A DNA stretch of 64,000 bases from contig CAZSKP010000003.1 in NCBI GenBank assembly GCA_964607485.1, positions 64,001 to 128,000 on the forward strand. The letters run 5' to 3'. Source of the stretch: an uncultured bacterium. Its GTDB lineage: Bacteria > Abyssobacteria > SURF-5. The position numbers and the translations under genes were made by a program. Each line of letters starts with the position of its first letter. The first letter of the stretch is position 1. Under the pieces are notes generated by a model. That model did no database searches, was not told the origin of the DNA, and worked only from the letters and a program-made list of their open reading frames with translations. Shown piece after piece: positions 36,824 through 61,399 of this stretch.

Positions 36824-37957
36824 TCAGTGGCTGGGTGCGGAACTCTCCTTTAGAATCGCAATAACCGTGGGTGCCAGGGCGGCGGCGATCCTCCTCTGGC
36901 CCGCTGCTTTGCAATGTCCCCATTTGTCTTTGAAGTACCTGTGTTCGAGCAGATTGGAAAGGTCCACGAAGTAGACGTTTTCCTTTTCAGTCGCTTTCAT
37001 AACCATCTGCATGGAATGTTCAAGGGCGGGCTTGTCTAAGATTCCGACGTCGGCAAAGGATTCCAGGTCCAACGGCCAGACAAAGAAGAGGACCTTTGTT
37101 CCGTGTTTCGATGCGACACTGGCAAGGGCTCGAAGGTCTTTCATCATGGGATTGGAATTCGTAACTCCCATCGGGAAATTCGCTTCAAAGGTCGAACGCA
37201 GGTCAGAGGGAGGCTGTTCCTCGGCATCCGGTTGCCCGTCTTCGATCGATTCGGAGGGCGTCTCAATACTGGCGTTCTCTTCTCCCGCGACTTTCGGGAG
37301 AACTGCGGCTTGGGGTTGAGGACGCAAATGGGCCCTCAGGTTGTCCAAAACCCACATCTTGATTCCCATGGGGTAGAGAGAGTAGATGGAGAACTTGTAT
37401 TCAATTTGTTTCGTCAAAGATATGCCCCTTGACCTGACAGGATTCTCATGCTCCGAAAGGACCCCGCCACGGAGGGGGGCAAGCGCTGACAACTCGGGGT
37501 TGAAATAGCTTTTCTCGCTTAACCAAGAGGATCCAAACGTTCTCCAATTTATGGGTATTACGATCAAATCGGGGGAATATCTCTCTGCCTCGTAAAACAG
37601 ACAGTAATAGTCAAACATGTCGGCCGCTACAAAGGCCCACTGAGAGACTATCAAGTTTTGAAACTCTGCTCTCTTGCTTATTTCCTCATCAAGCAGCTTG
37701 GACATGCCATCATATGCGGGAAAATAATTAGAATCGCCAAGACAAATGACTTTCAGTGGATTGCCTTTGTTATCTGACAATTTATCATACCAGCGCTTGC
37801 TGAACAGGTACGAATAGGGTTTGTTCTCGCTCGCACGTTCAATAAACGGTTCGAAGCCGATCAATTGCAGAGACAGCATCGCTGCCGCAACCAGCCAGGC
37901 CAGGTAGTAGATTCCTATCCTTATCGGAGCGGCGCTGCTTCTTTGGCGTAGGTTCAT
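36824..37957 (-). CDS. membrane-anchored SGNH-like protein (DltD/AlgX-type candidate acyltransferase)
   Basis: N-terminal TM, ICLGDS block I, C-terminal FVDL...F.D..GH...G...IA. Confidence 0.65.
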   Translation of the reverse strand: MNLRQRSSAAPIRIGIYYLAWLVAAAMLSLQLIGFEPFIERASENKPYSYLFSKRWYDKLSDNKGNPLKVICLGDSNYFPAYDGMSKLLDEEISKRAEFQNLIVSQWAFVAADMFDYYCLFYEAERYSPDLIVIPINWRTFGSSWLSEKSYFNPELSALAPLRGGVLSEHENPVRSRGISLTKQIEYKFSIYSLYPMGIKMWVLDNLRAHLRPQPQAAVLPKVAGEENASIETPSESIEDGQPDAEEQPPSDLRSTFEANFPMGVTNSNPMMKDLRALASVASKHGTKVLFFVWPLDLESFADVGILDKPALEHSMQMVMKATEKENVYFVDLSNLLEHRYFKDKWGHCKAAGQRRIAAALAPTVIAILKESSAPSH

Positions 37958-38290
37958 AGCCGATTACCGGACTTAGAATTGAAGGTACAATCCTCTATGA
38001 GGCGTTCAGCATTCTCAAATCAAGAAAAGCGAGAAAAGAGAGCGCGAGAACAAATCCGAACCGCAGCAAACATTCGATGTCAAATATGTGCTCAGCGGCA
38101 AGTTTACCATGCACGCGCGTATGGTTGCAAGCACTGAACCTCCTTGCTTTTTCGAAATTAACTGTGTTAAGATGTCGCGCAAACGGGCTGGAGGGCGCTC
38201 TTCGGCGAATGTGAAAGATCGTGCCGAAGGCTTCATGGAAGGATGGTCCCACCCGATAAACTCCAGTGGATCCCTCCGGGCAGGTAGAAT

Positions 38291-40288
38291 TTGGCTTACC
38301 GCGACTATCAAGAATACCTATCTCGCAAAGACAGCCAATCATTCCAGATATTAGCGGGTTTGGGCTCGATTCTTTCGGGCGTCTTGATTGCGGGAGCGGT
38401 CATCTATTTGCTGCCGCGGAATCTGTCTTCGTTGGAAAAGGCCCGAGAACTGGGCATCATCAGTCGGTCCGTCGTTGACGGGTATCCGAAGGCATCGGAA
38501 ATTCAATATTATGTCCTCGGCGTAATCGTTTCCCTCCTGAGCGGCCTTTCCATATTTCTGGGGATTACGTATTCTCACTACAAGAAGAGGAGCCTGGAGC
38601 GTACCGCCAAGGAGAGCCTTTTCGTTTATGACGGGGAGATGCCAAAACCTCGAATGGGACTGCTTCGCTGGGGAGCCCTGGTCGTGGTATTGTTCCTTGC
38701 CACTTTCCATACGGATTTCATATACAAGAATTGGTACTGGTCGGACTGGGGATTTTTCTTCGAAGAAGGCATCTATTTGCGCTGGATCAATGACCTGTTG
38801 AAGGGGAGAATTCTATACAAGGACATCTACTTCTACGGCGGTCCCTTCATGCTCTGGCCCCAGTATTGGCTGATGAAGCTGTGCGGGCCTTCCATTGCCA
38901 TCAACAGGTACTATGTCTATTTCTGCTACCTCGTCGGCTATTTAATCGTGTTCAAAGTCCTGCGCGAAACGATAAGAAACAGGATAGTGCTGTCGGTCGG
39001 CGTGGTGCTGATCGTGTATTTCTACTATCCCATGTTCCCGGGCTTCCATCGCTCGCTGGGGCGATTCGCCTTCGCGCTGCTTCCGCTCTATTTTCTGTAC
39101 AAATACTTCTTTCGGAAGGGCCGTTTGTACCTGCTCATATCGGGCGTATGCTCCGGACTCGCTCTTCTTTTCAGCCAGGAGCTGGGCATAAGCGCGCTGA
39201 TCGCGGCGCTGGCGATGCTGGCCGCTTTTGACTATCGGGAGGGAGAGACGATAAAGAACCTGGTGCGTCAGTTTTCTCTTATCGGCGCCGGAATTTTCGT
39301 CGCTCTGCTTCCCGTATTGGGCTATTTTGCGTTACACCGCGCTCTGGGCGACCTTTACGAGACGGTGATTGCCGGCACCAGATACTATACGCTGGGAATT
39401 TGGGGATACAGTTTTCCGAGTCTTTTCCAGCTCATCAAGAATCCGGCGGCGAGCAGGTACGACGTCGTCGAAACGTTGCTCGCTTATTGGCCGATACTAT
39501 TCTATGTCTGCAGTGTCTTTTTCTTCCTGGCCTTGTTTCTCAGGAAATCATTCAGCAACAGACACATCTTATACTTCGGTATCGCTGCGTTGGGTGGGAT
39601 GATTTTCCAGCGGGCTCTCGGCATATACTATCTCTTCCAGATAGGTACCCTCATCTATCCGCTGGTGATTCTGAGCGTCGCATACCTGGATATGGCCTGG
39701 CCGAGAGTGCGCACGCTGTTTGAGAATGGAAGCGTGACCGGGCGAACGATTGAGACGAGTTTCTACGTCGTGGCTCTCGTATTCATAACATCCGGCCTGT
39801 ACGGCTACTCACAGGCGCGCGCCTTCTACCCCGCGGCGCGCCCTCTTGTTTACCTGACCCACCTGAAAAGAAGCAGCGAAGGATTTGTGCCCCTGGACCT
39901 CCCCCGGGCCCGAAACATCTACGTACCGCCGAAAGAGGCGGACGAAATCAGATGTGTCGTCGATTATATCAAGGAAAAGACGACGCCCGAAGAGCCGGTT
40001 TATGTGTTTCCCTTTTCACCGACGTATTACTTCTTGGCCGATCGCGTGAGTCCCGTCAAGTATCCGGTCGCCCACACCACTACGAGGAAATATCGTGAAG
40101 AGACAATAGAGAAACTGGAAGAGGAGAAAGTCCGCTACGTGATTTACATCATGCAGGGACCTTCTCTGGGATTGACCCCTGAAATGCGCTATCCGGAGAT
40201 TACCGACTACATATTCAGAGAATATGCGCCCGAAAAGAGATGCGGTCGCGCAATCATCTCACGGCGCAAGAAACGCTCCGAGCCCTAA
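38291..40288 (+). CDS. polytopic membrane glycosyltransferase (GT-C fold)
   Basis: FEEG.YL....L.G.ILYKD....GP, FSQELG, many TM, C-terminal YI...T.P.EPVYVFP....YYFLADR. Confidence 0.72.
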   Translation: MAYRDYQEYLSRKDSQSFQILAGLGSILSGVLIAGAVIYLLPRNLSSLEKARELGIISRSVVDGYPKASEIQYYVLGVIVSLLSGLSIFLGITYSHYKKRSLERTAKESLFVYDGEMPKPRMGLLRWGALVVVLFLATFHTDFIYKNWYWSDWGFFFEEGIYLRWINDLLKGRILYKDIYFYGGPFMLWPQYWLMKLCGPSIAINRYYVYFCYLVGYLIVFKVLRETIRNRIVLSVGVVLIVYFYYPMFPGFHRSLGRFAFALLPLYFLYKYFFRKGRLYLLISGVCSGLALLFSQELGISALIAALAMLAAFDYREGETIKNLVRQFSLIGAGIFVALLPVLGYFALHRALGDLYETVIAGTRYYTLGIWGYSFPSLFQLIKNPAASRYDVVETLLAYWPILFYVCSVFFFLALFLRKSFSNRHILYFGIAALGGMIFQRALGIYYLFQIGTLIYPLVILSVAYLDMAWPRVRTLFENGSVTGRTIETSFYVVALVFITSGLYGYSQARAFYPAARPLVYLTHLKRSSEGFVPLDLPRARNIYVPPKEADEIRCVVDYIKEKTTPEEPVYVFPFSPTYYFLADRVSPVKYPVAHTTTRKYREETIEKLEEEKVRYVIYIMQGPSLGLTPEMRYPEITDYIFREYAPEKRCGRAIISRRKKRSEP

Positions 40289-40301: not shown

Positions 40302-42086
40302 TCACCTATAGAACTGGAACAGGTATATGCCGCCCCGTTGAGTCTCTCTTACGGGCTCGTGCTCCCTGATGAACAACATCAGCGGCTCTCTTTGCGCTTC
40401 GTCAATATCTTCAAAGTGGACCACCAGGTACTTAATCCGGCTTTCTCTGAAAAACCGGCTGTCTATCCCGATAATGGACCTCCGGGCCGCAGGGGTGAGG
40501 GGAAGGAAAGTATCGGGGGAATCTGCGAACCGGTAGAACGGGCTGTCCATTATCAGTTGCGTCGTCTTTGACTTGGACCTGGGGAAAATGCCCGTGTGTG
40601 TGGCGACTGTGACGAGCTTTCTCTCATGGAACGTCTGGTAATAGAGCACGCTCCGGCTGAGAGGAATCGAAGACACAAGGGGCCACTCGAGCACACCGTA
40701 TTCGGAGTCGTCGCCGAGCAGTTCGGCGTATATGTCGGGAACAGACGGCCGGGTAAGACGTATCGGGAGCTTGAGCCCCTCGACAAAGATGAGCGACGTG
40801 ATTACGAATGGAACAGGGAAGAGCCAGCGCCACTTTCTTGCGGGTATTCTCGCCCAGTAAACATCCATGGCCGTTCCCACGATGACGGCCAGCGCCATCA
40901 GCAGCGGAACGACGAAAATCATCGGATAGCGAAACATCCTGAAGAATGGCGCAATAATTACGAACCATGCAAACGGCATCGGGAGATTAACGATGGGCGT
41001 GCCATTCCATGTCATGTACAAGCCGAACGACAATAACAGGGACGACAAGGCGAGAATCAACCAAAATATATTTCTTTTCTTATTGACAAGCACGACGGAG
41101 ATTGCCACGGACAACAGCAACGAATACGTCAGGAACAGTTCGCCCCAGAACTCCGCCTGACTGGTCTTTCGTAGCAAAAAGCCGATGGACTTGAAAAGCG
41201 TGTGGTCGGCCGACGGAAGGAGATAGTTGGCGAGGTCGGCGCCAATGTAAAAAGGGAATCTCTCAACGGCCACTTCCCTATTAGCGAGGTCGCCGACGAT
41301 TCCCGCCAAGAGAGGCAGAGAAAGCGCTCCGAAGACCGCGCAGGCCACGGCGAAATGCTTCAGCAGTTTCCCGTCGATGGAGATACGCTTCTTGATAACG
41401 TGAAAGCCGAACGCCGGGATAAGGATGATAACCATAATAAAAAAATAGACGAATGAGTTGTAAAGCAGAACGCTCATCAGACAGGCGATCGCTATCAGGT
41501 GCCGCAATTTTCGGCTTTCGAGCCACCTGTAGCAGAAGAACAGGACCAACGGAAGGAACTCCATGCACAGGTTATGGAAACGAGGCACCATGGAGAGATG
41601 AGCCGCACTGAAAGAGAAGATGACTCCTCCGCAAAAAGCGGCCTTCCTGCTCGTCCGAAGCTGCCGCATCAACAGGTACTGAAAGAATCCGGCCGCGGTG
41701 AAAGACCAGAGAACCAGCAAGTTGTATGAAGGGATCAGCTTCAACTTGCCAAAGCTGAGCGCGCTCATGAACAATGCCATCAGGTTGTAGACGAATGAGA
41801 ACGTGTGAAAGGCCAGATTGGTGCCGAAAGGATAATAGATATAGTCCGTGAAGAACGGGTTCCTGTGAGCCAGCAGAGCGGTCTTGGTCCACCAGATGTT
41901 CCACACGAAAATGAACTGGTCGTTGATGCCGGTATTGTCGATGGGAAGCATCGTGTTCATGCGGACAATCAGAGGGTACGTGTACACGGCCGACAGGAGC
42001 AGATAGGCCAAGAGGACGATGAGATTGCGCAGAGGCGGGCTCAGTTTTCCGCTTGTACCGTGAACCGTGGATTCCGAAGGCGTCAT
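40302..42086 (-). CDS. polytopic membrane protein, GT-C/YfhO-like
   Basis: YTYPL, D...FVWNIWW, FFT.YIYYP.G..LAFH, FR.P..F, LEWP, YYQTFH.RKLV; ATG at 42086. Confidence 0.72.
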   Translation of the reverse strand: MTPSESTVHGTSGKLSPPLRNLIVLLAYLLLSAVYTYPLIVRMNTMLPIDNTGINDQFIFVWNIWWTKTALLAHRNPFFTDYIYYPFGTNLAFHTFSFVYNLMALFMSALSFGKLKLIPSYNLLVLWSFTAAGFFQYLLMRQLRTSRKAAFCGGVIFSFSAAHLSMVPRFHNLCMEFLPLVLFFCYRWLESRKLRHLIAIACLMSVLLYNSFVYFFIMVIILIPAFGFHVIKKRISIDGKLLKHFAVACAVFGALSLPLLAGIVGDLANREVAVERFPFYIGADLANYLLPSADHTLFKSIGFLLRKTSQAEFWGELFLTYSLLLSVAISVVLVNKKRNIFWLILALSSLLLSFGLYMTWNGTPIVNLPMPFAWFVIIAPFFRMFRYPMIFVVPLLMALAVIVGTAMDVYWARIPARKWRWLFPVPFVITSLIFVEGLKLPIRLTRPSVPDIYAELLGDDSEYGVLEWPLVSSIPLSRSVLYYQTFHERKLVTVATHTGIFPRSKSKTTQLIMDSPFYRFADSPDTFLPLTPAARRSIIGIDSRFFRESRIKYLVVHFEDIDEAQREPLMLFIREHEPVRETQRGGIYLFQFYR

Positions 42087-42114
42087 AATTTGGTTGCGGT
42101 CCGATGATCGGGTG

Positions 42115-43092
42115 TCACGCGTCGGCGATTCGGTCGAGCAAGAACTGTTCGAAACGGTTCGGGTCAATATACAGGGCGACGTCCGCGTTCGGCTCCGCCG
42201 TCCTGCCGCGCGCGAACGGACGCAGGTCGGCAACGCTCATGCCCGTTGTCAATTTCCCGTCGGTCTCAATCTCGACATGCACGCGTCTTGTGCCCGCGAA
42301 ACCGCCGTCGATGGCGACCATCACCGCCAGGGGGTCGTGCAGACAGCAGCCATGATACCCTTCCCTCTCCCTGTAGAAGTTCATGACGTGCTCCGTCGAG
42401 TCCCTCAGGAACCGGTTGAGCTTCGTCCGCTTCTCCGTCGCGCTCAGAAGCGAGTGGCGGCTGAGGCGGGCGCTGCGAGTGACGTCGAGGCCCACTAACG
42501 TGATGGGGATGCCGGAGGATACGACCTCGCGCGCGGCTTCGGGGTCGCAGAAAAAATTGAACTCGGCGGCGGGAGTCACGTTGCCCGGAACCGAATAGGC
42601 GCCGCCCATCGTGACAATCTTCCTGATGCGCCGCGCCAACCCGGGGTCGAGCGTCAGGGCGAGCGCGACATTCGTGAGCGGCCCCAGCGTGACGACGGTC
42701 AGCTCGCCCGAATGCCGGTGGGCGAGTTCGCATATGAGCTCGGGCGCATACTTCTTAACAGGACGCAGGCGGGGGGACGGATATTTCCTCTTCCCGCGCC
42801 GGTCCTTGATGAACGATATCTCTCCCAATCCGTCGCGTCCGTGGATGGAAACGCTTGGAAAGGGTTCCCTCCAAATGGGCCGGTCGGCACCCTGCGCGAC
42901 GGGCGGGGCGTTCGGCATGCCCAGGATCTCCAGTACCTGGAGCGCGTTCCGGGTGCATTGGCCGACACCCGTGTTGCCGTTGACGGTCGTGATCGCTTCG
43001 ACCCGGAGCTCGGGCGACCGAAGCGCGAGGATCAAGGCGAGCGCGTCGTCTACCCCCGGGTCGGTGTCGATTATTATCCGCTCCTGTGACAT
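42115..43092 (-). CDS. nucleoside hydrolase (IUNH family)
   Basis: IIDTDPGVDD, HG.DGLG, LGPLTN, MGGA, GNVTPAAEFN..DPEAA, LHDP. Confidence 0.93.
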   Translation of the reverse strand: MSQERIIIDTDPGVDDALALILALRSPELRVEAITTVNGNTGVGQCTRNALQVLEILGMPNAPPVAQGADRPIWREPFPSVSIHGRDGLGEISFIKDRRGKRKYPSPRLRPVKKYAPELICELAHRHSGELTVVTLGPLTNVALALTLDPGLARRIRKIVTMGGAYSVPGNVTPAAEFNFFCDPEAAREVVSSGIPITLVGLDVTRSARLSRHSLLSATEKRTKLNRFLRDSTEHVMNFYREREGYHGCCLHDPLAVMVAIDGGFAGTRRVHVEIETDGKLTTGMSVADLRPFARGRTAEPNADVALYIDPNRFEQFLLDRIADA

Positions 43093-43138: not shown

Positions 43139-44125
43139 CTAACTCGGAATCGGCCAGTCTTTTCGTTCGAGAATCTCCCTGATGATGTACTTCGGAAGGT
43201 GCCGCGAGGCAATGAAGGAGCGAACGGTGAACTCACCTATCATGCATAGTATCGCCACGAGGACGAATGAGGAAATCACGATCGCGTTGAGCAACAGGCC
43301 GGTTGAGACCTTGCCGAGAATCTTGAACGGCGTAAAATAGTCCACGACCACCCTGACCCCAAAGAGGAACGCAAAGACGAAACTGATAAACGCCAGTATC
43401 TGAAAGGGGCGTTCCGTCATGATGACGATATTATCCATGTTGTATTTCCAGAGTTTCCTGAACGTGTAGCCGGATTTTCCGTATTTCCGTGGATAGTGTG
43501 TGACCGGGACTTCCCGACATCGCCCCGCTTTGGAGATAGCGTCGATATTGCTGAAAACGTGAAACGGCCCCGGCTCCAAAGCTCGGACCAGCTTTGCATT
43601 GAATAGTTTGAAGGTGCATCCGAAATCCCGAAACGTGCTCTGCGACGCCTTTCGCATAATCATGTTGGCGATTCTTGACGGAATGATTCTGAGCAGGGAA
43701 TCCTCCCGCTTTTCCCTGTAGCCGCTGACGACATCGAAGCCCCTGTCGTATTCTTGCGCGAGCAGCGGAATTTCCTCGGGAGCCAGTTGCAGGTCGCTGT
43801 CCATGAACATGAAGGCGTTGCCGCGGGCCTGACACATGGCGGCCGTCACGGCGGCCTGTTGGCCGGCGTTCTTGAAAAAATCTATGACGGCGCTCACCTT
43901 CGGGTCACGCTGGAATATCTTCTTGAGCTTCTCGAAGGTCTTGTCGGTGCTGCCGTCGTTCACCATGATGATCTCGTACGAGCGTCCCAGGGATTCCATT
44001 GTGGCGGAAAGACGCGAGTAGAACTCTTCTATGCTTTGCTCCTCGTAGTGACAAGTTACGAGCACGGAGAACTCCGGAGCTTGATCATCGTCCTGAGCCC
44101 GATGCATCGCTGGCTTGTCCGGCAT
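43139..44125 (-). CDS. GT2 polyprenyl-phosphate glycosyltransferase (ArnC/GtrB/CsbB-like)
   Basis: VNDGSTD, NAGQ.AA, MDSDLQ..PE.IP, DVVSGYR..RED, DFGC.FK, two C-terminal TM helices then GE. Confidence 0.88.
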   Translation of the reverse strand: MPDKPAMHRAQDDDQAPEFSVLVTCHYEEQSIEEFYSRLSATMESLGRSYEIIMVNDGSTDKTFEKLKKIFQRDPKVSAVIDFFKNAGQQAAVTAAMCQARGNAFMFMDSDLQLAPEEIPLLAQEYDRGFDVVSGYREKREDSLLRIIPSRIANMIMRKASQSTFRDFGCTFKLFNAKLVRALEPGPFHVFSNIDAISKAGRCREVPVTHYPRKYGKSGYTFRKLWKYNMDNIVIMTERPFQILAFISFVFAFLFGVRVVVDYFTPFKILGKVSTGLLLNAIVISSFVLVAILCMIGEFTVRSFIASRHLPKYIIREILERKDWPIPS

Positions 44126-44147: not shown

Positions 44148-45167
44148 TCAGTCGTTATCGCGAGGTGTATGCGCCACGACCATCCTGTAAAGCGACAGCC
44201 CGCAGTCACGCCAAGAAGGACTCGTATAGCCCGCCGACTGCATGAGCGCCGCATACTCCTGAACACTGCGGCGCCGTCCCCCGAAAAGTGTGATCATCAG
44301 AGAGGTCAGTACGGAGCTTGGGTCGTGCTTCAGCGTGTCATCATTCATGGGTTCCACTATGAGCGCAGTGCCGGGCCTTCGCAGACAAGAGCGAGCCTTC
44401 GTTACCAAGTTCGAAACCTCTTCGTCGTTCCAATCATGCAAGACGCGCACAAAAAGTATGGCGTCGGCCGCATTCGCCGGCAGTTCGTCGCGGAAAAAAT
44501 CCACCGGCAGAAGCTTGATTCTTGCCCCGAGCCCGGCCTCATCGATGCGGGCACGGGCTCCTTCGCATACGGCGGGAAGATCCGCAATGGTGATTCGCAA
44601 ATGGGGATATTTCTTGGCCAGAGTGATCGCCAGGCGAGCGTGTCCGCCGCCGAAGTCGATGATACGCTCGTGCGCTCCGAAGTCGTAGTGCTCCACGATG
44701 GCTTGGCTCAACTGCGCCTGAGAAGCATCCATCACGGATGAATAGTCGTCCACCGCGGAAGCTTGCAGTTGTTTCGGCTCGGAAGACTTCTTATAGATCC
44801 AGTATGCGGAAAGCACCGAGTCCTGATACCGGCCAGTCCTCAGCAATCCAGTCAAGTCACAGAGCGAGTCATAGAATTGCTGCATTTCCCTGTTCCAGCT
44901 TCTTATACTCTGATACGTGGGCAGGATCGAACGGCTCAGGTCTGATAATTCAAGCTTTCCGTCCTGTTCCCGAAGCATGTGGAACGCGACCAGCACGTCA
45001 AGGACAGCATCGGAGATAAGCGTGTCTTCCATCGCTGTTCTCTTCTTCAGTTCGGCACGGCTGAGAGGTGCCTGCTCCAGTTGCCTGAAAAGGTCGAGCT
45101 CGATTGCCGCCATCAGAACTCGAGCCAGGGCGAACGCTTTTACGGAATTCAGGAAGTCCGTCAACAT
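44148..45167 (-). CDS. SAM-dependent O-methyltransferase (Methyltransf_2; CrtF-like)
   Basis: dimerisation domain AIELDLF; YW.Y...YS.VM.ASQ; DFGGG, DLPAV, DFF.D.LP..ADAI.FVRVLHDW, IVEPM. Confidence 0.85.
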   Translation of the reverse strand: MLTDFLNSVKAFALARVLMAAIELDLFRQLEQAPLSRAELKKRTAMEDTLISDAVLDVLVAFHMLREQDGKLELSDLSRSILPTYQSIRSWNREMQQFYDSLCDLTGLLRTGRYQDSVLSAYWIYKKSSEPKQLQASAVDDYSSVMDASQAQLSQAIVEHYDFGAHERIIDFGGGHARLAITLAKKYPHLRITIADLPAVCEGARARIDEAGLGARIKLLPVDFFRDELPANAADAILFVRVLHDWNDEEVSNLVTKARSCLRRPGTALIVEPMNDDTLKHDPSSVLTSLMITLFGGRRRSVQEYAALMQSAGYTSPSWRDCGLSLYRMVVAHTPRDND

Positions 45168-45303: not shown

Positions 45304-45876
45304 TCATGAGCCTCCTAACAGTTTTTTCTCTAATTCAATTATCCTCTCGGATCTTCTCTTGCCTATCGGCCTTGCCGGATTACCCCCGCAAATCGTCCAG
45401 GGCTCAATCTTCCCCCGCACGAAAGACAGGGCACCGATCGCCGCGCCGATTCCAATCGTCGTTTTCGGCATGATTATCGATCCCGCGCCGACAATTACGT
45501 GCTTCTCCAATTTTACGGGTCCTTTATCGAATTTGACTTTGAATTTGTCCGGGATGGTAGTATTTGTCAATGAAGAGCCAAAAACGTAATCATCGGAAAA
45601 CGTGTACACCGAGACCCTGGCGGATAAACCGGCGAAGTCGCCTATCGAAATCTTCTCCTGTTCACCGTACAGCGCGCAGTAGGCGGCAATGTGGACGTAC
45701 GAACCAAGCTGAATGTCGCCGCTCAGTATGCAAAAATCGTCGATCCGAACATTGTCCCCGACGGTCAGTCTCTCGGGCGAATAGATGGATGCTTTCCTAC
45801 TTATGAGTACATTTTTGCCGTATTTTCTTATTCCCGATTCAGCAAGTTCGGCTTCTTCAAGAAATGATGTTTTCAC
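45304..45876 (-). CDS. left-handed beta-helix acyltransferase, VioB-like (dTDP-4-amino-4,6-dideoxyglucose N-acyltransferase)
   Basis: GKNVLISRKASIY, NVRIDDFCILSG.I.LG.YVHIAAY, SDDY.G.SLTN.TIP, GA.SFV, GNPA. Confidence 0.8.
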   Translation of the reverse strand: MKTSFLEEAELAESGIRKYGKNVLISRKASIYSPERLTVGDNVRIDDFCILSGDIQLGSYVHIAAYCALYGEQEKISIGDFAGLSARVSVYTFSDDYVFGSSLTNTTIPDKFKVKFDKGPVKLEKHVIVGAGSIIMPKTTIGIGAAIGALSFVRGKIEPWTICGGNPARPIGKRRSERIIELEKKLLGGS

Positions 45877-49940: not shown

Positions 49941-49943
49941 TTG

Positions 49944-50180
49944 CTACTGCACACCCCTCTGCGCTAGAACGTCCAGAATATCTCGGACAGAAGCCATTTG
50001 CATAATCTCGTCTATCTCAAACTGGAGACCAAATTCCTCTTCCAACATCCCAGCCATATTCATATGACCGAGAGAATCCCATTTTGATACGTCGTCTGGA
50101 GTGGTTTCGGCAGAGATGCTTTCAGCGGGCACGGCAAAAACCTCGCTAAACACCTTCGCTACGCGCTCAATGGTTTTCAC
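49944..50180 (-). CDS. acyl carrier protein
   Basis: WDSLGHM phosphopantetheine motif, acidic, 78 aa. Confidence 0.9.
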   Translation of the reverse strand: MKTIERVAKVFSEVFAVPAESISAETTPDDVSKWDSLGHMNMAGMLEEEFGLQFEIDEIMQMASVRDILDVLAQRGVQ

Positions 50181-51047: not shown

Positions 51048-51108
51048 GTCGCTTACCTCTTCCAGTCCTTTCAAGGCCGAACGTGCCAGAACTTGGCAGA
51101 CTTTGCCT

Positions 51109-51493: not shown

Positions 51494-51551
51494 TTAATTG
51501 TGCTCAATATCTTTATGTTCCCCCAACTTATGACCTTACCAAATGCAGTGA

Positions 51552-51581
51552 ATTCTATCATATCATCTTTCGGGATGTCAA
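51552..51581 (-). promoter_or_regulatory. sigma70 promoter driving the SDR-ACP-ligase-luxE-luxC block
   Basis: minus strand TTGACA-N18-TAGAAT with extended -10 TG. Confidence 0.72.
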
Positions 51582-52119
51582 GATATCCGCCTCGCTCGCA
51601 GACCCGCATTTCGGACAAGAAAAAGGACTTTGACAGAGGAGGGCAGATTCCAAAAGTTCTTGACAAAGGCCTTAACGCCCACGATAAGAAAAACCTGGTA
51701 GCGAGGGGGTGGACGACAAACTCTTTCGAATCCCGCGTCCGGCTCTTCGCCGAATCGTCCGATTTCTCTCCACAGATATACCCTTGTTGGTCGATGGTAA
51801 AGCGGTTCAGGGCATGGGAGGACGTAGTTGCCTCATTACATCACGACGCGCATTGATTTGATTTAATGTTTCAAGGTGAGACACAGCCAGTCCCGCTTAC
51901 TGCGCACGACAGATAAGCACGGACTTCCGTAGTCGAGTACGAGGAATATTCCGAAAGTCATAAAATGTGGGAGAATTGTGAGATGAGGAAATTCAGCCCG
52001 CGGAGATGTCGTTCCCGGAACAAGGCGTGTGAACAGATTCCGGACTCCATAATTATTTGGTGAGAAATTCCTTGATCGTTCAAACAGTCAGGGAGTGACC
52101 TTCTCGGCAGATGAGACAG

Positions 52120-53325
52120 TCACCTCATATTCTCGGATCCCAGGGTTTGGAGAGTCTTGAGCACATGGCAGATGTTTCGTAGCTCGCTTTCCTGCAGTGT
52201 TCCGCAAAGCGGCAGACACAACACCTGTCGGGCGACGCGTTCGGCTACCGGCAGGTTGCTCGGCGCGGCCGAGGGAAGCGCGGAATAACAGGAGAAGTGG
52301 CTGCATAACGGATGGAAGTATTTGCGCGGATGAACATTGAATTGTTTCAGCAGCGTGTAGAGTTCGTCCCGGCTCATCCCGTAACGCTTTTCATCGATGA
52401 GAATGGGGAAATAGGCGTAGTTGGGACGCACGTGCGGGATTTCTTCGAGGAGCGAGAGTCCCGGAATATCCCTCAATCCGTCTCGATAGATTCCGCTCAG
52501 CCTGCCCCGGTTGGCAATCTCTTCGTCCACCATGTCAAGCTGAAGGAGGCCGAAGGCCGCCTGAAACTCGTTCATCTTGCCGTTGATTCCCGGGCCGATG
52601 ACCGTCTCCTCGCCGGCGATCCCGAAGTTTCTCAGGAAGCCGATGCGTCTTTTTTGGTCTGCGGATTTGGAGATCAGCGCACCGCCCTCGCCAGTCGTGA
52701 AGAGCTTGGTCGCGTGGAAGCTCAGCACGGAGATGTCGCCGTACGAAAGGATCGACCGGCCGTTGTAGCGCACGCCGAAGGCATGGGCGGCATCGTATAT
52801 CACATGCAAACCGTGCGTGTCCGCGATTGCCTGGATGGCCTCCACATCACAGGGAGTTCCGTAGACGTGCACCGCCAGTATAGCCTTTGTGTCGGGGCTG
52901 ATGAGACGTTCCAGCCGGTTGGGGTCCAGGTTGAAGGTTTTCTCGTCAATGTCGCAGAAAACGGGCCGGACCCGGTTCCAGTACAGAACGTGGGAGGTGG
53001 CGGGAAAGGTAAACGGAGTGGTAATCACCTCACCGCTGTTTATGCGCAGCGCCTGAAGCGCCACCAGAAGAGCTATTGTGCCATTGCAGAAGAGGGACAA
53101 ATGTTCCACGTCCAGATATTGGGCCAATCGGGCCTCTAACTCCCTGTGAAGCTCTCCGTCGTTGGTGAGCCATTGACGCTTCCAGATTCCCTCGAGTTTC
53201 TCACGATACTGGCCCAGGCTCGGCATGCTCGGACGCGTCACCAGGATCGGCTCAGGGAATTTATATTTGAGGATGAGGCTGTCCAAAGAAGGATGTTGCA
53301 AACGATTGCCAGCCCTGGTTTCCAC
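52120..53325 (-). CDS. DegT/DnrJ/EryC1/StrS sugar aminotransferase, VioA-like
   Basis: VTRP..P, WLTN.G, NGT.AL, TTPFTF.AT, VIYDAAHAFG, SFHATKLF.T.EGG (PLP Lys), GINGKMNE; GTG at 53325 with GGAGG RBS. Confidence 0.9.
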   Translation of the reverse strand: METRAGNRLQHPSLDSLILKYKFPEPILVTRPSMPSLGQYREKLEGIWKRQWLTNDGELHRELEARLAQYLDVEHLSLFCNGTIALLVALQALRINSGEVITTPFTFPATSHVLYWNRVRPVFCDIDEKTFNLDPNRLERLISPDTKAILAVHVYGTPCDVEAIQAIADTHGLHVIYDAAHAFGVRYNGRSILSYGDISVLSFHATKLFTTGEGGALISKSADQKRRIGFLRNFGIAGEETVIGPGINGKMNEFQAAFGLLQLDMVDEEIANRGRLSGIYRDGLRDIPGLSLLEEIPHVRPNYAYFPILIDEKRYGMSRDELYTLLKQFNVHPRKYFHPLCSHFSCYSALPSAAPSNLPVAERVARQVLCLPLCGTLQESELRNICHVLKTLQTLGSENMR

Positions 53326-53462
53326 CCGAAAGGTTCCTCCCAAGTTCACGCCGCGCCGAGAAAGGAAGGGGAGAATCAATCCCTCTCGGAAGCGGATCTC
53401 GCCGCGCAGCCAAAATGCTTCCTTATTGGCGGTTCCTCACATGCTCAAACCCTGTGAAGCGT

Positions 53463-56132: not shown

Positions 56133-59100
56133 CTTTTGCTCCTCTTTCTCAAGACCACAAAAGAAAATGAACACAGAATGAGCAAGAGGGTGCCGAGGGA
56201 GATGGCCGCTCCCCAACGCAGACTGGCGGGCTGGTACTTGAAGACAACCGTGTGATTGCCCGCGGGCGTCTCGACGGCCCGAAACAGCGAGTTCGCACGC
56301 CAGATGGGCGTCCTCACGCCGTCCACGAACGCGTTCCAGCCCGGATAGTATCCGTCGGTCAGGATGACAAGCGAGGGTTTGTCGGCCTCGACATGCAGCT
56401 CGACCTCGTCGTTTTCGTACCTGTCGATTCGCGCGCGGCCGGAACGTGTGGAAGCATCGGAGGAGGCAAACGAGGGCTGGCCGTTTTCGAGTATTACCGA
56501 GTGCGACAGCTCGGAGAGGTTATTCCTGATTGCCTGCAGGCTCTCCTGCTCGCCGTGCGTGATTATATAATTGTTGACCAGATAGGTTCGGGGCAGGGCG
56601 AATTCATTCTCGTAAATGCAGATTTCCGGTTCCGTGCTGTTTTGATATCTCAATTTCCATGAATCCCGGCTATCCTCTTCTGACATTTCGCTGTCCGTAA
56701 CCATGTACCGCAAAGAAGCAAGCCCCATCTCTTTTGCCCGTTGCGGCAGGTCCTTCTCGAAACCGACGAAGAGTCCATAAAATGTGACAATCTCTTCAAA
56801 TTCCTTGTCCCCTATCATAAACTCGACAAAATCTCCCCATCTCGCCAAGGTGAACGATGTGTAGCTGCTAATGTTAAAAATTCGGTCTCCAGACCCGCGA
56901 CTCTTTTCGGGTGAGTTCACTGCGTATTTCAGATATACACGGTCATATCCCGCGTGTTCTGTTATCCACTTTCTCCACGACACATCCGAAGAGCCGGCGT
57001 AGCTCTTGACAGTGGTGGCTGGAACGGTGCTCCGGATATGTCGGTACGAGACAATCTCAACCAGTATTAGCAGCGCCAATACCCACACGCCCGTCTTTTT
57101 CGGCCACGAGGGAAGCCCGGAATCATAGAAGAAGTAGAAGACGAAAACGGCCGTCATGAAAAGTACGAAACATCCTGTTGGTTCGAATCTGTGTCCGAAC
57201 ACAATACCCAGCACGGCCAGCCCCACCGTCATGCCTAGTATGAATCTCTTCATCCGGGGGACGCCGTCGAGGGCACATATAAACACGAACAGAATCAAGG
57301 AGACGCAGAGCAGGAGGATTATCAAGTCGATGACCGCATCCAGCACGTCCCACAGGTGGACGGCGCCCAGCAGACTGGTCAACAGCACCATTCCCATCAA
57401 TACCGTTTTCACGCGGAAGGAATAACGGGAAGCGCGTATTAAGAAAGCGGCGCCAATCACTATCCAGGGCAACAAGATCACGAAGTAGCCGGATGAGCGA
57501 AATAACAATCTGGGGACGGTCTTGCAGGTTGGGTACGCCACGAAAAGTGTGTACAGAACTGCCAGGATTGGAAACCAATTCAACTTGCCTGTTTCCGTGT
57601 CCCGCAGTCTTACCGACCCTTTTTCCCACAGAACGAGGAGGCCAATGCCCGCCAAGACGCCTAGCGCAAATTGATTCATATCGATCATCCTGGCGTGCCA
57701 ACGCAGGGAATCCGAAAAGGGCAACTTGCCAAAGATGGCCAGCGAAGGCACATGTTTCGACAGGACGAAAAGCACGGTATAACCAATGGTCGCGAACAGG
57801 GCGATCACGACGGGCCGGTCCTTCTTGGACGCAATTGAGAAAGGGACAAACAGAAGAGAGCTGCCATAGTAGTAAATGGCCGCGGACACAAAGAGATTTC
57901 TGTCGCCCCAGATATGCGCCCCCCTGCTGTTCAGGTAATTATTAAACACCAGACTGATTGAAAAGACATCGTAAGGGTCATGTCCCGTTGAAACATATTC
58001 CTTGGTTATATTCCGCACGGAAGATAGGGATAATTCCACCATAGGGAGAAACTGCACGGAGACTATGCCCAGCATCAACACAAAGGCGAGTCCCACCAAG
58101 CTCAATCTGAGCAGCGTGCCCTTAAGCTTGTATTCGGACCAGGAAAACACAATGACAAAGGAGAAATATACAAACCCGATGATGCAGATATAGTAAAAGT
58201 AATTGGCGAAGCCCCCCAGGAAGCAAAGAACGAGAGAAGCTGTCAGGGCGATGCACGCGCCGAAGCTCGGCCTGTCGAAAAGACGGTGGGTCAGCAAGAT
58301 AATAAGAGGAAGCCAACACAGCGTGGCCCCCTTATTCGGGACAAAGGTATCCAGAAACACCGCATATCCAAAAAGCATCGTACCCAGGATAACAGCCGGC
58401 CAGTCAAGCTTCAGATAACGCATATAGAGCAGCGTCCCCACCATACCAATGATGGTGTTCAGAAACTGGATGACCAGCATGGCGCGCGGCACGTCCAGCA
58501 GAAGCATTACCCAATTGATGGGAGAGAGAAGGCTCTGCCCGTTAATGGCGAAAAGGGGACCACCCAACGCATCATAGGGGTTCCACAATGGAAGCGCTCC
58601 CGCCCGAACATACTCCCTGGAGAGTGTTAGGACCGGCCAAAACTGAGAATACATGTCGCTATTTATGAAATTGAGGACGGGAGTGCTTCCCGCTTTCAGT
58701 ACGTCATAGAGGAGCATTGCCAGAAAGAATAGAATTCCCAGGAGGATCAAGGATGGTTTGAGTAGCCGTTTCATCTTTTCCTTCGCCTTCTCGAGACATC
58801 AAGCAGGAGAGCACACAAAATAACCGTGAGGGTGCCGAGGGAGATGGCCGCTCCCCGGCGCAGACTGGCGGGCTGATATCTGAAGAGAACCGTGTGATTG
58901 CCCGCGGGAGTTTCGACGGCTCGAAACAGTGAGTTCGCGCGCCATACGGGCTTCCTCTCTCCGTCCACAAACGCGTTCCAGCCCGGATAGTAGCTGTCGG
59001 TCAGGATGACGAGCGAGGGTTCGCCGGCTTCGACCTGCAATTCGACCTCGTTTATTCCATACCTGCCGATCCGCGCCCGGCCCGGATTTGCGGGCACGGC

Positions 59101-59255
59101 GGCAGAGGGAAACGAGGGCTCGCCGTTTTCGAGTATCACCGAGTGTGACAGGCTCGAGACATTGTCCCTGATCGCCTGCAAGCTCTCCTGCTCGTTGCGT
59201 GTGATTGCGTAGCTGTTGACCAGATAGGTTCGGGGCAGGGCGAATGTGTTCTCGC
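53558..59255 (-). repeat. three highly similar ~430-nt 3' ends of the YfhO paralogs (about 53558-53985, 56188-56615, 58830-59255)
   Basis: shared gggtgccgagggagatggccgctcccc...gtgtgattgcccgcggg...aaacgcgttccagcccggatagta-type sequence. Confidence 0.88.
56129..58774 (-). CDS. YfhO-family GT-C membrane protein, paralog 2
   Basis: same motifs; ATGA overlap coupling on both sides. Confidence 0.88.
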   Translation of the reverse strand: MKRLLKPSLILLGILFFLAMLLYDVLKAGSTPVLNFINSDMYSQFWPVLTLSREYVRAGALPLWNPYDALGGPLFAINGQSLLSPINWVMLLLDVPRAMLVIQFLNTIIGMVGTLLYMRYLKLDWPAVILGTMLFGYAVFLDTFVPNKGATLCWLPLIILLTHRLFDRPSFGACIALTASLVLCFLGGFANYFYYICIIGFVYFSFVIVFSWSEYKLKGTLLRLSLVGLAFVLMLGIVSVQFLPMVELSLSSVRNITKEYVSTGHDPYDVFSISLVFNNYLNSRGAHIWGDRNLFVSAAIYYYGSSLLFVPFSIASKKDRPVVIALFATIGYTVLFVLSKHVPSLAIFGKLPFSDSLRWHARMIDMNQFALGVLAGIGLLVLWEKGSVRLRDTETGKLNWFPILAVLYTLFVAYPTCKTVPRLLFRSSGYFVILLPWIVIGAAFLIRASRYSFRVKTVLMGMVLLTSLLGAVHLWDVLDAVIDLIILLLCVSLILFVFICALDGVPRMKRFILGMTVGLAVLGIVFGHRFEPTGCFVLFMTAVFVFYFFYDSGLPSWPKKTGVWVLALLILVEIVSYRHIRSTVPATTVKSYAGSSDVSWRKWITEHAGYDRVYLKYAVNSPEKSRGSGDRIFNISSYTSFTLARWGDFVEFMIGDKEFEEIVTFYGLFVGFEKDLPQRAKEMGLASLRYMVTDSEMSEEDSRDSWKLRYQNSTEPEICIYENEFALPRTYLVNNYIITHGEQESLQAIRNNLSELSHSVILENGQPSFASSDASTRSGRARIDRYENDEVELHVEADKPSLVILTDGYYPGWNAFVDGVRTPIWRANSLFRAVETPAGNHTVVFKYQPASLRWGAAISLGTLLLILCSFSFVVLRKRSKR

Positions 59256-61399
59256 GTACGTAAAACTTTGAGTTCTTATCGATGCCTTCGTGCGTCAACT
59301 TCCACCCGTTGCGATTACCCTCTCCTATCTTGTCCTCGTCGAAACCTTCATAGGCGAGAAAGTAGCGAAGAGATGTCAATCCCACCATCTGCGGCTGCTC
59401 CAGGAATAATTTCGTCAAAGGCCCGACGAGGATGCCGTAGAAGGGGCCGGCCCGGGTGATCTCGTCGAATTTTTCGGAACCTGCGATGCAGCGGACATAG
59501 TTTTTCCACCGGGCCAGCGTCAAGGAGTCGTAACTGTCGATACTGAAAAACTGAAACATGCTTCCAATATTAGAGTTGAGTAAGGAATCGGAGGGGGAAA
59601 TGAGCACACGGTCGTACCCCGCGTGTGCTTTTGTCCACTTTACCCTTTGGTCGAAATAGAAATTGGCTGAGGCGACCGTAGTGGTAGCGGGAACCGGCGC
59701 GAGCGCCTGCCTCCGTGGAACGACATCGAGCAGTATCAACAGCAACACCGCCCACATGCTCGCCCTCCTCGTCCAGGGGGGAAGTTCGGGAGCATACAGG
59801 AAGAAAGCGAGCACGGCTGTCATAATGACTGTGAAATATCCCGTCGGCTCGAACTGGCTCCTGAACACAATACTCACCGCGACTAGCCCCGCCGCCATTC
59901 CCGCTGCGAATCTCTTCATCCGGCGAGAGCCATCGGAAGCGTACAGAACGACGACGATAATCAAGGGGATGCAGAGCGAAATGCCGATGAGGTCGATTGC
60001 CATGTACATCGTGTCTTTGAATGAGACAACGCTTAGCAGACCCGCCAATAGCACCGCCGCCGCCAGGAACCCTTTCACCCGAGGAGGATACCTGGAAGCT
60101 ATCACAAGGAAGATGAAACCGATCAGTATCAAGGGCAGCAGAATCACCATGTAACTTGATGAACGAAATAACAGTCTAACGATGGTCACGCAGGCCGGGT
60201 ACGAAAGGAAGAGCAGGTACAAGACCGCCAGCACCGAGAACCAGTCCAAGCTCCTCGTCCGTGGGTTGCGCAACTTCAGGAATTCCCTGTTCAACAGAAC
60301 AGAAAGGCCGATCCCCGCGAGGGCCACGATCATGAAATGAGTGAGAGCCACAAACCTTTCGTGCCAACGGAAACTGTCGGCAAGAGGGACCCTGCCGAAG
60401 ACGGCCAACTCCGGCCTGTGCTTTGATAGAACAAACAGCAGTGCATAGCCCAGGGCGGCTGACAGCGCTATCACAACCTGCCTGTGCCTCTTAGACCAAA
60501 GCGCAAAAGGGATGAGTAGCAGCGAGCTGCCGAAATAGGGCGTGAACGAGTGAGGCGTCCATGTGGTCAGAGTGCTCCACAACATCCCAAGCACGGAGAA
60601 CCTTCCGAGCAAAAGAACTTTTCCCGGCTCCATCTGCTTCGTCACACTACGGACAGAATGAAGAGACAGCTCCAGCGTGGGCAAAAATTGCACAGCGACC
60701 AGCCCCGCCGTGAACAGAAGGGCGAGACCGCACAGGCCAAATCTCAACGAGACGCCTCTCAGCTCATAACGGGACCATGAGAGGAGCAGCATAACACAAA
60801 GGTAAACGAATAGAATGATGCAGATGTAGTAAAAGTGCTGGACGAATCCCGCCAGAAAACAGAGAGCCAGCAATGCCGTCAGCGCCAGGCACGCCCCCAG
60901 CCCCGGCCCGTCAAGAAGCCGGTGAGCCAACCACAGAATGACCGGCAGCCAACAGTAAGCCGAGCCAACGCAGAGGCAAAAGGTCTGTCCCAAAACGGAA
61001 TACCCAAAAAGCAAAGATGCCAGGATGACGGCGGGCCACTCAAGCTTCAGATAGCGCATGTAAAGCGCCATCCCCCCCCATGCCGATAGCGACAGACAGA
61101 AACTGTATTGCGAGCATCGCCCGAGGCACGTCCAGCAGGAATATTACCCAGTTAATCGGGTAGAGAAGCCCGTATCCTATTACAGCAAAGAGCGGGCGGC
61201 CCACCGCCTGATAGGGATTCCACAACGGGAGCGTCCCAGACAGAACTTCCCGTTTGGCAAGAGTTAGTAGCGGTAAATATTGAGCATACAAGTCGAGGGG
61301 AGGAATCCCATCCCCCGCCCTCTTCATTTGATACAGAGAATTCGTCAGAAAGCACGAAATGCCGACGACGACCAGAGCCAGTACGACCAGACGCTTCAA
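58771..61399 (-). pseudogene. YfhO-family GT-C membrane protein, paralog 1, frameshifted at a G8 tract (61072-61079)
   Basis: ORFs 61040..61399 and 58771..61071 join if G8 becomes G7, giving GMGGMALYMRY, in register with GMAGVVLYMRY and GMVGTLLYMRY of the paralogs; remainder intact. Confidence 0.88.

Follow-up and report, generated by a model that had tools for sequence, protein, structure and literature searches.

The locus and its gene content

The window analyzed here is a 64,000-nucleotide stretch from an uncultured bacterium (C3:64001-128000, that is, positions 64001-128000 of contig C3; the genome spans 4.7 Mb in 93 contigs and is 97.5% complete). At positions 36824-61399, it harbors a candidate glycosylation locus in which putative enzymes for an N-acylated amino sugar adjoin an acyl carrier protein (ACP) cassette, a polyprenyl-phosphate glycosyltransferase of family 2 (GT2), and several membrane-embedded glycosyltransferases of the GT-C fold. 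The host is a diderm, with LptD-like and TonB-dependent receptor genes within the window, and the closest named homologues of the YfhO and DltD-like proteins of the locus are found in metagenome-assembled genomes (MAGs) labelled Candidatus Abyssobacteria/Abyssubacteria and Hydrogenedentota. Families were assigned by Pfam and NCBIfam scans of 22 open reading frames (ORFs) between 36.8 and 63.8 kb; Pfam calls denote scores above the gathering score unless stated otherwise.

Nearly all genes of the locus are on the minus strand (Table 1), where they follow the order YfhO3, YfhO2, YfhO1, DegT-family aminotransferase, about 1 kb without a good ORF that holds a gene remnant, short-chain dehydrogenase/reductase (SDR), ACP, ligase, LuxE, LuxC, AntD-like acyltransferase, methyltransferase, GT2, nucleoside hydrolase, and GTCb. 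The three YfhO genes have 4-bp overlaps, and 83 bp lie between YfhO1 and the aminotransferase gene. From the SDR to GTCb, the genes are on a single strand with intergenic gaps of -4 to 150 bp; the five genes downstream of LuxC (AntD-like, methyltransferase, GT2, hydrolase, and GTCb) are spaced by 22-136 bp. As a result of this tight, single-stranded arrangement, the GT2 and a YfhO-related GT-C enzyme share one block with the cassette. Beyond the block, GTCa stands alone on the plus strand and the gene of the membrane-anchored DltD-like protein is on the minus strand.

No Rfam family reaches its gathering score between positions 36000 and 62000. Promoter and terminator scans do not rise above shuffled sequence (15 vs 11.1 ± 3.8 and 24 vs 19.7 ± 4.9, respectively), and two 11-of-12 promoter-like sites on the minus strand, at 53504-53476 and 51581-51552, are hints only.

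A preliminary description of the window, made from the letters alone, had read these genes as a candidate undescribed surface-glycosylation system. Every gene type that it listed is present, most by Pfam scores above gathering and the others by profile or fold. It had overlooked the nucleoside hydrolase, the remnant of a VioB-family gene, and a YfhO fragment at the left border.

Table 1. Genes, gene remnants, and sequence features of the locus, in minus-strand order (positions are those of the window).
Feature	Position	Strand	Assignment and remarks
YfhO paralogue 3 (YfhO3)	58771-61399	-	PF09586, 50.6 bits; two frames (61399-61040, 61071-58771)
G8 run at the YfhO3 frame break	61072-61079	-	Minus-strand letters
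YfhO paralogue 2 (YfhO2), 881 aa	56129-58774	-	PF09586, 66.3 bits; 57% identical to YfhO1
YfhO paralogue 1 (YfhO1), 889 aa	53463-56132	-	PF09586, 66.6 bits (cut-off 28.5); 15 hydrophobic segments; start set by paralogue alignment
DesI/VioA-type sugar 4-aminotransferase (DegT)	52120-53379	-	PF01041, 330.7 bits; true start uncertain
NeuD/PglB/VioB-family acyltransferase remnant	51142-51489	-	N-terminal half only; stop codon at expected start; beta-helix half missing
FabG-like SDR	50331-51074	-	adh_short_C2, E 2e-53
Dedicated ACP	49944-50180	-	PP-binding; DSL serine motif in translation
Acyl-AMP ligase	48354-49940	-	AMP-binding and AMP-binding_C; starts 3 bp after ACP gene
LuxE-like acyl-protein synthetase	47190-48344	-	PF04443, 182.5 bits; 4-bp overlap with LuxC-like gene
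LuxC-like acyl-thioester reductase	45922-47193	-	PF05893, 214.6 bits
AntD-like left-handed beta-helix N-acyltransferase (hexapeptide family)	45304-45876	-	PDB 3vbi-3vbp, E 1.7e-50
O-methyltransferase with dimerisation domain	44148-45167	-	PF00891
Polyprenyl-phosphate GT2, ArnC/GtrB/PgfS-like	43139-44125	-	PF00535
Nucleoside hydrolase, inosine-uridine type	42115-43092	-	PF01156, E 2e-94; RihC/RihA-like, below cut-offs
GTCb, distant YfhO-related GT-C	40302-42089	-	9 hydrophobic segments; likely start ATG at 42089
GTCa, GT-C fold, PMT_2-like family	38291-40288	+	PMT_2, 23.3 bits, under 26.1 cut-off
DltD-like SGNH-fold protein	36824-37957	-	No Pfam family above threshold; one N-terminal hydrophobic segment (membrane anchor)
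YfhO-type gene, C-terminal fragment, 124 codons	36478-36849	-	YfhO profile, E 1.3e-18; left border of locus

Putative donor-sugar enzymes

By sequence, the aminotransferase appears nearest to DesI, a dTDP-4-keto-6-deoxyglucose 4-aminotransferase, although neither the nucleotide nor the stereochemistry of the product can be read from such a match. DesI is both its best NCBIfam model (TIGR04427, 326.6 bits, under the cut-off of 650) and its best PDB match (2po3, E 5e-76). Genes for precursor supply are found elsewhere in the genome: RmlB at C17:43904-44848 scores above its cut-off (455 bits), and an RmlA-like gene scores below (247 bits).

The acyltransferase, which the preliminary description had called VioB-like, turns out to be AntD-like instead. 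Its residues 3-187 align with residues 19-200 of the 205-residue chain of 3vbi-3vbp, and about half of the 185 residues are identical by midline count. In contrast, only its last 50 residues match the NeuD/PglB/VioB model TIGR03570, with 50 bits vs a cut-off of 160.8. The structure 3vbn is that of AntD, the N-acyltransferase of D-anthrose synthesis in Bacillus cereus, according to the accessible text of PMC6031040, and that of PMC8141488 names 3-hydroxy-3-methylbutyryl-CoA as involved in anthrose synthesis. A predicted complex of three AntD-like copies with the ACP scored 0.00, which speaks neither for nor against binding.

The VioB family is represented within the locus solely by the remnant, which aligns with residues 4-119 of the 229-239-residue proteins of three loci that carry the same cassette in other genomes (L037, L041, and L006) at 29-36% identity (tblastn against the whole window, E 1e-10 to 5e-9). 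The intact VioB-family genes of such loci score 129-144 bits on TIGR03570. Between the aminotransferase gene and the remnant, 630 bp are devoid of any ORF. The window thus retains a DegT-VioB-SDR order, also found in other cassette loci, in which the VioB-family member has decayed. This conserved frame, together with the AntD-like gene located after LuxC, suggests that the order is ancestral and that the AntD-like gene may have functionally replaced the decayed acyltransferase.

The O-methyltransferase has its nearest solved relatives among natural-product enzymes, namely MmcR (E 8e-25), RedM, DtpM, RdmB, and CalO6.

The acyl carrier protein cassette

The SDR, ACP, ligase, LuxE, and LuxC genes constitute a compact cassette. 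Orthologues of the SDR, 51-64% identical, occupy the same position in other cassette loci. The ligase is best matched by the NCBIfam model TIGR03098, at 356 bits and below its cut-off. LuxE-like and LuxC-like proteins each have a sole PDB match, chains E (E 3e-17) and A (E 2e-18), respectively, of the Photobacterium phosphoreum complex 7xc6, with the C-terminal cysteine of the former and the cysteine of the latter aligned. These cysteines are presumably the residues that become acylated. A search of PMC9157457 for labels of these residues gave no match.

The cassette harbors two carboxyl-activating enzymes (the ligase and LuxE), a thioester reductase, and an SDR. On the basis of this composition, and by analogy with the tetronate pathway proposed for Vibrio cholerae (see below), a dicarboxylic or hydroxy acid is suggested as its substrate.

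Lipid-carrier glycosyltransferase and GT-C enzymes

Residues 18-325 of the GT2 align with the ArnC structures 9bhc and 8vxh (E 4e-41), and the GtrB structure sll0501 follows with E 1e-26. With this full-length alignment and C-terminal hydrophobic segments at residues 233-296, the ArnC/CsbB-like character given to it earlier holds. The best NCBIfam model is ArnC (NF007986) with 154 bits vs a cut-off of 529, followed by PgfS with 133 bits, also below cut-off; the scores are so far below both cut-offs that the identity of the transferred sugar is not readable from the sequence. The GT2 is the sole GT-A-type glycosyltransferase that Pfam finds among the 22 ORFs, and the locus has no cytoplasmic glycosyltransferase.

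Three YfhO paralogs had been claimed, and all three exceed the PF09586 cut-off; the third, however, is split by a frameshift. The two further GT-C proteins of the preliminary description are likewise recovered, GTCa by its fold and GTCb by a YfhO profile. A PMT_2 match is present in 13 of 65 members of the GTCa family. The GTCa model built from the 65-homologue alignment has a predicted local distance difference test (pLDDT) score of 91.5, and in a Foldseek search of the PDB all of its 27 matches at E<=1e-3 are GT-C enzymes (STT3, ArnT, AftA, DPY19, AglB, PglB, and Emb). Two GTCa paralogues, 58% and 56% identical, are located on contig C22. An hhalign comparison of a four-sequence GTCa alignment with the YfhO alignment gave a probability of 4.6%. 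GTCb has no Pfam match and is connected to YfhO by a purpose-built profile of 93 homologues (E 2.3e-17); its atlas neighbors, clusters of DUF6311, provide a lead only.

The DltD-like protein has an SGNH fold, as had been described. In a Foldseek search with a model of pLDDT 80.3, the DltD structures 3bma, 7dxm, and 6pfx rank first (from E 1.4e-5 upward), ahead of GDSL esterases. Residues G74-D75-S76, D344, and H348 are invariant in 19 homologues. In the usual SGNH motif, the aspartate and the histidine are two residues apart; here, they are given as three residues apart. The model is consistent with a predicted acyl transfer or esterase activity outside the cytoplasm. A Dlt-like function, formed by the ligase, the carrier protein, and the DltD-like protein, was considered and rejected: no MBOAT-type gene is present in the locus, and DltD-like genes accompany GT-C genes in relatives that have neither ligase nor ACP.

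A GtrA-type flippase, whose absence from the window had been remarked upon, is missing from the 97.5%-complete genome as well: the family PF04138 has no match at E<=0.01, in a search that is positive for 8 of 14 control genomes. On other contigs, five Polysacc_synt (MOP) genes exceed the cut-off. The small ORFs at 37995-38342, 51236-51856, and 61396-61806 were considered as hidden GtrA genes and discarded, having no Pfam match even at E 10 and translations that are not membrane-like.

Many public proteins of about 1300-1480 residues (Wzx-YfhO, many of about 1350) consist of a MOP-type flippase (PF01943, PF13440) fused to a YfhO domain. These fusions hint that in many bacteria YfhO enzymes may work with Wzx-like rather than GtrA-like flippases.

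In the genome, about a dozen YfhO-family genes are distributed over seven contigs (C2, C6, C13, C14, C34, C63, and that of the window), several in tandem and four on C34, and there are four full-length ArnC-like GT2 genes, including that of the locus. One of the others, a near-canonical ArnC on C42 (C42:8392-10435, 486.6 bits vs the 529 cut-off), adjoins a DegT paralogue, which suggests a separate Arn-like pathway, putatively for the modification of lipid A or the envelope. On C6, at 94581-102192 and on one strand, an ArnC-like GT2 (94581-95468), a YfhO match (99886-100110), and a MOP/Polysacc_synt gene (101392-102192) occur in succession, with the YfhO gene about 4.4 kb after the GT2 and about 1.3 kb before the MOP-type gene. 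This arrangement is a possible second three-part set.

Cassette loci in other genomes

The LuxC-like protein has hundreds of homologues, with 58-68% identity among the 120 matches listed. A total of 88 cassette loci were taken, 13 from species-representative genomes (Acidobacteriota, Planctomycetota, and Verrucomicrobiota MAGs) and 75 from metagenomes. Collapsing near-identical copies left 72 distinct loci, of which 70 have a tabulated LuxC match. Adjacency was counted where the sequence reaches at least 4.5 kb upstream of LuxC, a condition that left 26 distinct loci, and partner genes were searched by tblastn in the 33 informative loci with at least 5 kb outside the cassette.

The cassette itself is well conserved. 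Beside LuxC, LuxE is found in 26/26 loci, the ligase and ACP in 23/26, and the SDR in 16/26. Among the informative loci, a DegT-family gene is near the cassette in 14/33, a NeuD/VioB-like gene in 3/33, a full-length polyprenyl-phosphate GT2 in 2/33, and a DesI-like aminotransferase of at least 45% identity in 1/33. The company of amino-sugar genes counts in favor of the pathway proposed below. Three distinct loci (L006, L036/L037, and L041/L072) have a NeuD/VioB-family acyltransferase immediately ahead of the SDR, and in L036/L037 and L041/L072 a DegT gene precedes it. Other neighbors identified by Pfam include GT1, GT2, Bac_transf, GNAT, UDP-glucose dehydrogenase, Poly_export, and LPG_synthase_TM; of the called ORFs, these scans took in 79 of 123 in one set of 7 loci and 67 of 74 in another of 8.

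The closest architecture is that of L036/L037, a single distinct locus. Its order is PgfS-like GT2 (181.5 bits), GT2, DesI-like aminotransferase (53% identical to that of the window), NeuD/VioB-family acyltransferase (143.7 bits), SDR, SDR, ACP, ligase, LuxE, and LuxC, and downstream of LuxC a weak Wzx-like match is followed by another GT2.

In several Planctomycetota-like loci, a giant 2000-residue TPR protein is encoded within 2-3 kb downstream of LuxC (L035, L040, and L051 by Pfam scan; L053 and L073 by ORF length only).

Relation to known glycosylation systems

In the Arn pathway, a nucleotide-bound 4-amino sugar is N-acylated, transferred by a GT2 to undecaprenyl phosphate, flipped, and transferred further by a GT-C enzyme. 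The locus resembles this pathway in that its GT2 aligns over its full length with ArnC, whose PDB structure titles name an N-formyl sugar, and in that the GTCa model matches ArnT among other GT-C enzymes. However, there are several differences. The sugar is probably a dTDP-6-deoxyhexose, as the DesI-like enzyme indicates, and not UDP-L-Ara4N; the acyl group would come from the AntD-like enzyme and the carrier-protein cassette instead of formyl-tetrahydrofolate; and the transferases are of the YfhO type, with no ArnD, ArnE, or ArnF seen.

The combination of a polyprenyl-phosphate GT2 with YfhO-family GT-C enzymes is shared with CsbB/GtcA/YfhO and with PgfS/PgfM1/PgfM2 of Streptococcus mutans, multi-component transmembrane glycosylation systems described in the available portions of PMC5836110, 10.1101/2019.12.12.873851, PMC8035078, and 10.1101/2022.10.10.511621. 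In contrast to CsbB/GtcA/YfhO, the host is a diderm whose genome has no GtrA/GtcA, the locus has three tandem YfhO and two other GT-C enzymes, and a dedicated module for an exotic donor takes the place of UDP-Glc/UDP-GlcNAc.

With the anthrose (antABCD) and viosamine pathways, the locus shares a 4-aminotransferase of the DesI/VioA type, an N-acyltransferase of the AntD type, and an O-methyltransferase. It differs in that neither an AntA-type enoyl-CoA hydratase nor an AntB-type cytoplasmic glycosyltransferase is present among the 22 ORFs, and in that its methyltransferase is of the PF00891 class, which acts on small molecules. The acyl group presumably originates from the ACP cassette, and the product would be passed to a lipid carrier.

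The cassette has its own precedents. Group II flagellin glycosylation islands of Aeromonas contain genes for an ACP, a 3-oxoacyl-ACP reductase, an AMP-dependent synthetase, luxE, and luxC (PMC7874193), and the same five gene types are found in enterobacterial flagellin islands (PMC4875605). As in the window, these types are adjacent within a glycan locus, the comparison being by gene type and not by sequence. A lipid-bearing glycan (liposugar) is suggested in the accessible parts of both papers, which report no biochemistry. The GT2 that follows luxC in Aeromonas, Fgi-1, is described in PMC7874193, as far as its available text extends, as a soluble, cytoplasmic enzyme with no transmembrane segment that acts on flagellin-linked pseudaminic acid. 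In contrast to Fgi-1, the outlet in the window is membrane-bound and directed to a lipid carrier.

A second precedent, compared by description, is V. cholerae O1, in which a ligase and a carrier protein also serve the N-acylation of a 4-amino-4,6-dideoxyhexose. The tetronate pathway of this organism is said to have been proposed by Morona et al. in 1995. According to the portions available, VC0248-VC0252 (rfbK-O) acylate perosamine with 3-deoxy-L-glycero-tetronate (PMC3441752), and RfbL activates 2,4-dihydroxybutanoate and passes it to CoA or to the carrier RfbK (PMC12208996). Biochemistry of the cassette was not found in the literature searched, in which subscription journals are mostly uncovered and which offers only genomic descriptions and proposed pathways.

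Consequently, the term "undescribed" is too strong for the individual parts of the system: the cassette is known from flagellin islands, and a lipid-linked N-acyl 4-amino sugar follows the logic of the Arn pathway. The locus is, rather, a new combination of individually known modules.

Frame break and gene fragments

The two pieces of YfhO3 align in order with the paralogues, and the frame break coincides with a run of eight G residues. The length of this run was compared in three public runs of one study, as assembled contigs. In the probable source run, it is the same as in the window (G8). In a second sample, a 272-base contig with a depth of 4.8 has one letter fewer at 61072 (G7) and otherwise no difference, and with G7 the frame is continuous. 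The length of the G-run thus hints at variation between samples, which is not proof of switching, as a single low-depth contig may be in error.

The YfhO fragment at the left border matches YfhO1 at residues 749-840 (35% identity, E 2e-10).

Proposed pathway

Family and fold assignments, gene order, and conservation patterns are directly established. Taken together, they make it probable, if far from certain, that the locus encodes an Arn-like glycosylation outside the cytoplasm, in which a lipid carrier presents an exotic N-acylated 4-amino-4,6-dideoxyhexose as the donor.

In this proposal, dTDP-4-keto-6-deoxyglucose would be supplied by genes elsewhere in the genome and aminated at C4 by the DesI-like enzyme. 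The cassette would prepare a small, non-acetyl acyl group. As a guess, LuxE and LuxC might activate one carboxyl of an acid and reduce it to the aldehyde, which the SDR would convert to an alcohol, possibly methylated by the PF00891 methyltransferase; the AMP-ligase might then load the remaining carboxyl onto the dedicated ACP, and this end would form the amide. The AntD-like enzyme would transfer the acyl group to the amino group of the sugar. From there, the ArnC/PgfS-like GT2 would move the sugar onto polyprenyl phosphate, a flippase encoded elsewhere would turn the lipid-linked sugar outward, and the sugar would reach one or more envelope acceptors through the action of the YfhO paralogues, GTCa, and GTCb. 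Outside the membrane, the DltD-like SGNH protein may add or remove an ester, and one YfhO transferase may be switched on and off through the G-run. In this scheme, we infer all substrates and acceptors, the hand-over from the ACP to the acyltransferase, and the coupling of the GT2 to the GT-C enzymes.

An elaborated form of this proposal, in which one exotic N-acyl (possibly methoxy- or hydroxy-acyl) sugar is distributed from polyprenyl phosphate by up to five GT-C enzymes to different envelope acceptors in a diderm of a little-studied lineage, with one of these enzymes under the control of the G-run, is doubtful.

If that form holds, it would provide the first functional link between a LuxE/LuxC carrier-protein cassette and periplasmic lipid-carrier glycosylation, and it would reveal the replacement of a VioB-type by an AntD-type acyltransferase inside the conserved frame of the cassette. 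Glycan loci from many phyla carry the LuxE/LuxC cassette, the chemistry of which seems never to have been demonstrated. The locus is compact and has defined partners for reconstitution, namely the DesI-like enzyme, an acyltransferase for which the structure of a close relative is solved, and, as the outlet, one membrane GT2. YfhO-type transferases are best known from teichoic-acid and adhesin glycosylation in Gram-positive bacteria. Here, the family is strongly expanded in a diderm lineage, where a tailored donor sugar may be coupled to it. If the difference in the G-run does reflect switching, this uncultured bacterium from sediment would possess a contingency locus.

Alternative explanations

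The single pathway envisaged in the preliminary description stands with respect to gene order and spacing, the DesI-like and AntD-like enzymes, and the lipid-carrier GT2 as the sole outlet. It finds no parallel in a second locus that includes YfhO, and further observations weigh against it. At the level of the enzymes, the GT2 is far below the ArnC and PgfS cut-offs, the known donor of AntD is an acyl-CoA and not an acyl-ACP, and the solved relatives of the methyltransferase act on small aromatic natural products and not on sugars. No flippase gene lies within the locus, and the VioB-family remnant, the frameshifted YfhO, and the YfhO border fragment are signs of decay. LuxE-LuxC-SDR trios also occur on plasmids in non-glycan contexts (Azospirillum and Pantoea), at 24-30% identity, and are not informative for this locus.

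Comparison with other cassette loci is similarly mixed. Co-occurrence of the genes, which the preliminary description had put forward as a check, extends to the cassette, the DesI-like aminotransferase, a VioB-family gene, and a PgfS-like GT2, all joined in L036/L037. It does not extend to the AntD-like, O-methyltransferase, YfhO, other GT-C, and DltD-like genes, each of which is found in 0/33 informative loci. A YfhO profile that recovers every copy in the window matches no ORF in the 88 cassette loci.

The strongest competitor holds that the locus is composite. The YfhO, GT-C, and DltD-like proteins would form a lineage-typical set that acts on ordinary lipid-linked sugars, one of them possibly supplied by the ArnC-like GT2, beside an inserted block of aminotransferase, cassette, and AntD-like genes, whose nucleotide sugar would be used by cytoplasmic glycosyltransferases elsewhere, for O-antigen, capsule, or flagellin glycan. 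Genomes of the same family are the main source of evidence for this explanation. Multiple YfhO matches are present in 9/9 of them and a LuxC-like gene in 0/9, so that no syntenic relative of the locus is available. The YfhO orthologues of these relatives have GTCb-like, GTCa-like (49% identity), and DltD-like (39%) genes as neighbors and no donor module, and sulfatase-family genes and methyltransferases are also nearby (Pfam scan of 37 of 55 called ORFs). By these distributions, the GT-C/DltD-like set is typical of the lineage and the donor module is an accessory that was inserted at its side, and adjacency may thus reflect insertion beside a resident gene set rather than function. A composite origin is also consistent with the ordinary GT1, GT2, Bac_transf, and export genes, without GT-C enzymes, of other cassette loci, with the cytoplasmic glycosyltransferase after luxC in Aeromonas (in the available text of PMC7874193), with the YfhO fragment, which points to rearrangement, and with the dozen or so other YfhO and three other full-length ArnC-like GT2 genes of the genome. 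However, the GT2 and GTCb are part of the same tight one-strand block as the cassette, the locus has no cytoplasmic glycosyltransferase that could use the nucleotide sugar, and a PgfS-like polyprenyl-phosphate GT2 accompanies the cassette independently in L036/L037. The composite explanation is considered unlikely.

It is improbable that the cassette instead acts as a fatty-acid reductase, supplying a fatty aldehyde, alcohol, or amine to a lipid or liposugar, with the sugar genes only loosely related. The sole PDB relatives of the LuxC-like and LuxE-like proteins do come from luminous bacteria, where they act as fatty-acid reductase and synthetase, the next-best models of the ligase are long-chain fatty-acid CoA ligases, a liposugar has been suggested for flagellin islands in the parts available of PMC7874193 and PMC4875605, and the trios outside glycan loci would fit as well. 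Yet, while both proteins meet the Pfam level, they are far under the equivalog cut-offs for true LuxC and LuxE (95.9 of 750 and 64.7 of 550 bits, respectively). Moreover, a search confined to the 22 ORFs of the locus reveals neither a LuxD-type acyltransferase nor a luciferase, many loci link the cassette with genes for aminotransferases and N-acyltransferases, and its ligase relative in V. cholerae is assigned a four-carbon hydroxy acid in the accessible text of PMC12208996.

Finally, it is very improbable that the locus is decaying and the modified sugar is no longer made in this population: despite the startless half of a VioB-family gene, the frameshifted YfhO3, the YfhO border fragment, and the 630 ORF-less base pairs, the remaining 16 genes have intact frames and lengths as in their homologues, the AntD-like gene can replace the lost acyltransferase, and the G-run at the frameshift differs in length in a second sample, which has an open frame.

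Other features of the window

The nucleoside hydrolase gene lies between those of the GT2 and GTCb, 46 bp from the former and 25 bp from the latter. Its G+C content is 0.641 vs 0.49-0.57 in its neighbors, tblastn finds it as a single copy in the genome, and it is near the cassette in 0/33 informative loci. We know of no role for a nucleoside hydrolase in a glycan pathway.

Thirty kilobases from the locus, immediately after the LptD-like gene, three successive NAD-dependent epimerase/dehydratase genes are located on the plus strand at 3455-6378, none of them at the RmlB cut-off. To the right of the locus, a 756-residue ORF at 61575-63845 (plus strand) is probably over-extended: a BtuF/TroA-like periplasmic binding protein match covers residues 495-721 only, and the arginine-rich N-terminal 450 residues overlap a 351-residue ORF at 61870-62925. 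At 18874-20712, on the minus strand, a 612-residue ORF displays an unusual fusion of CoA-binding and succinyl-CoA-ligase-like domains with a C-terminal RNase H/RVT_3 domain.

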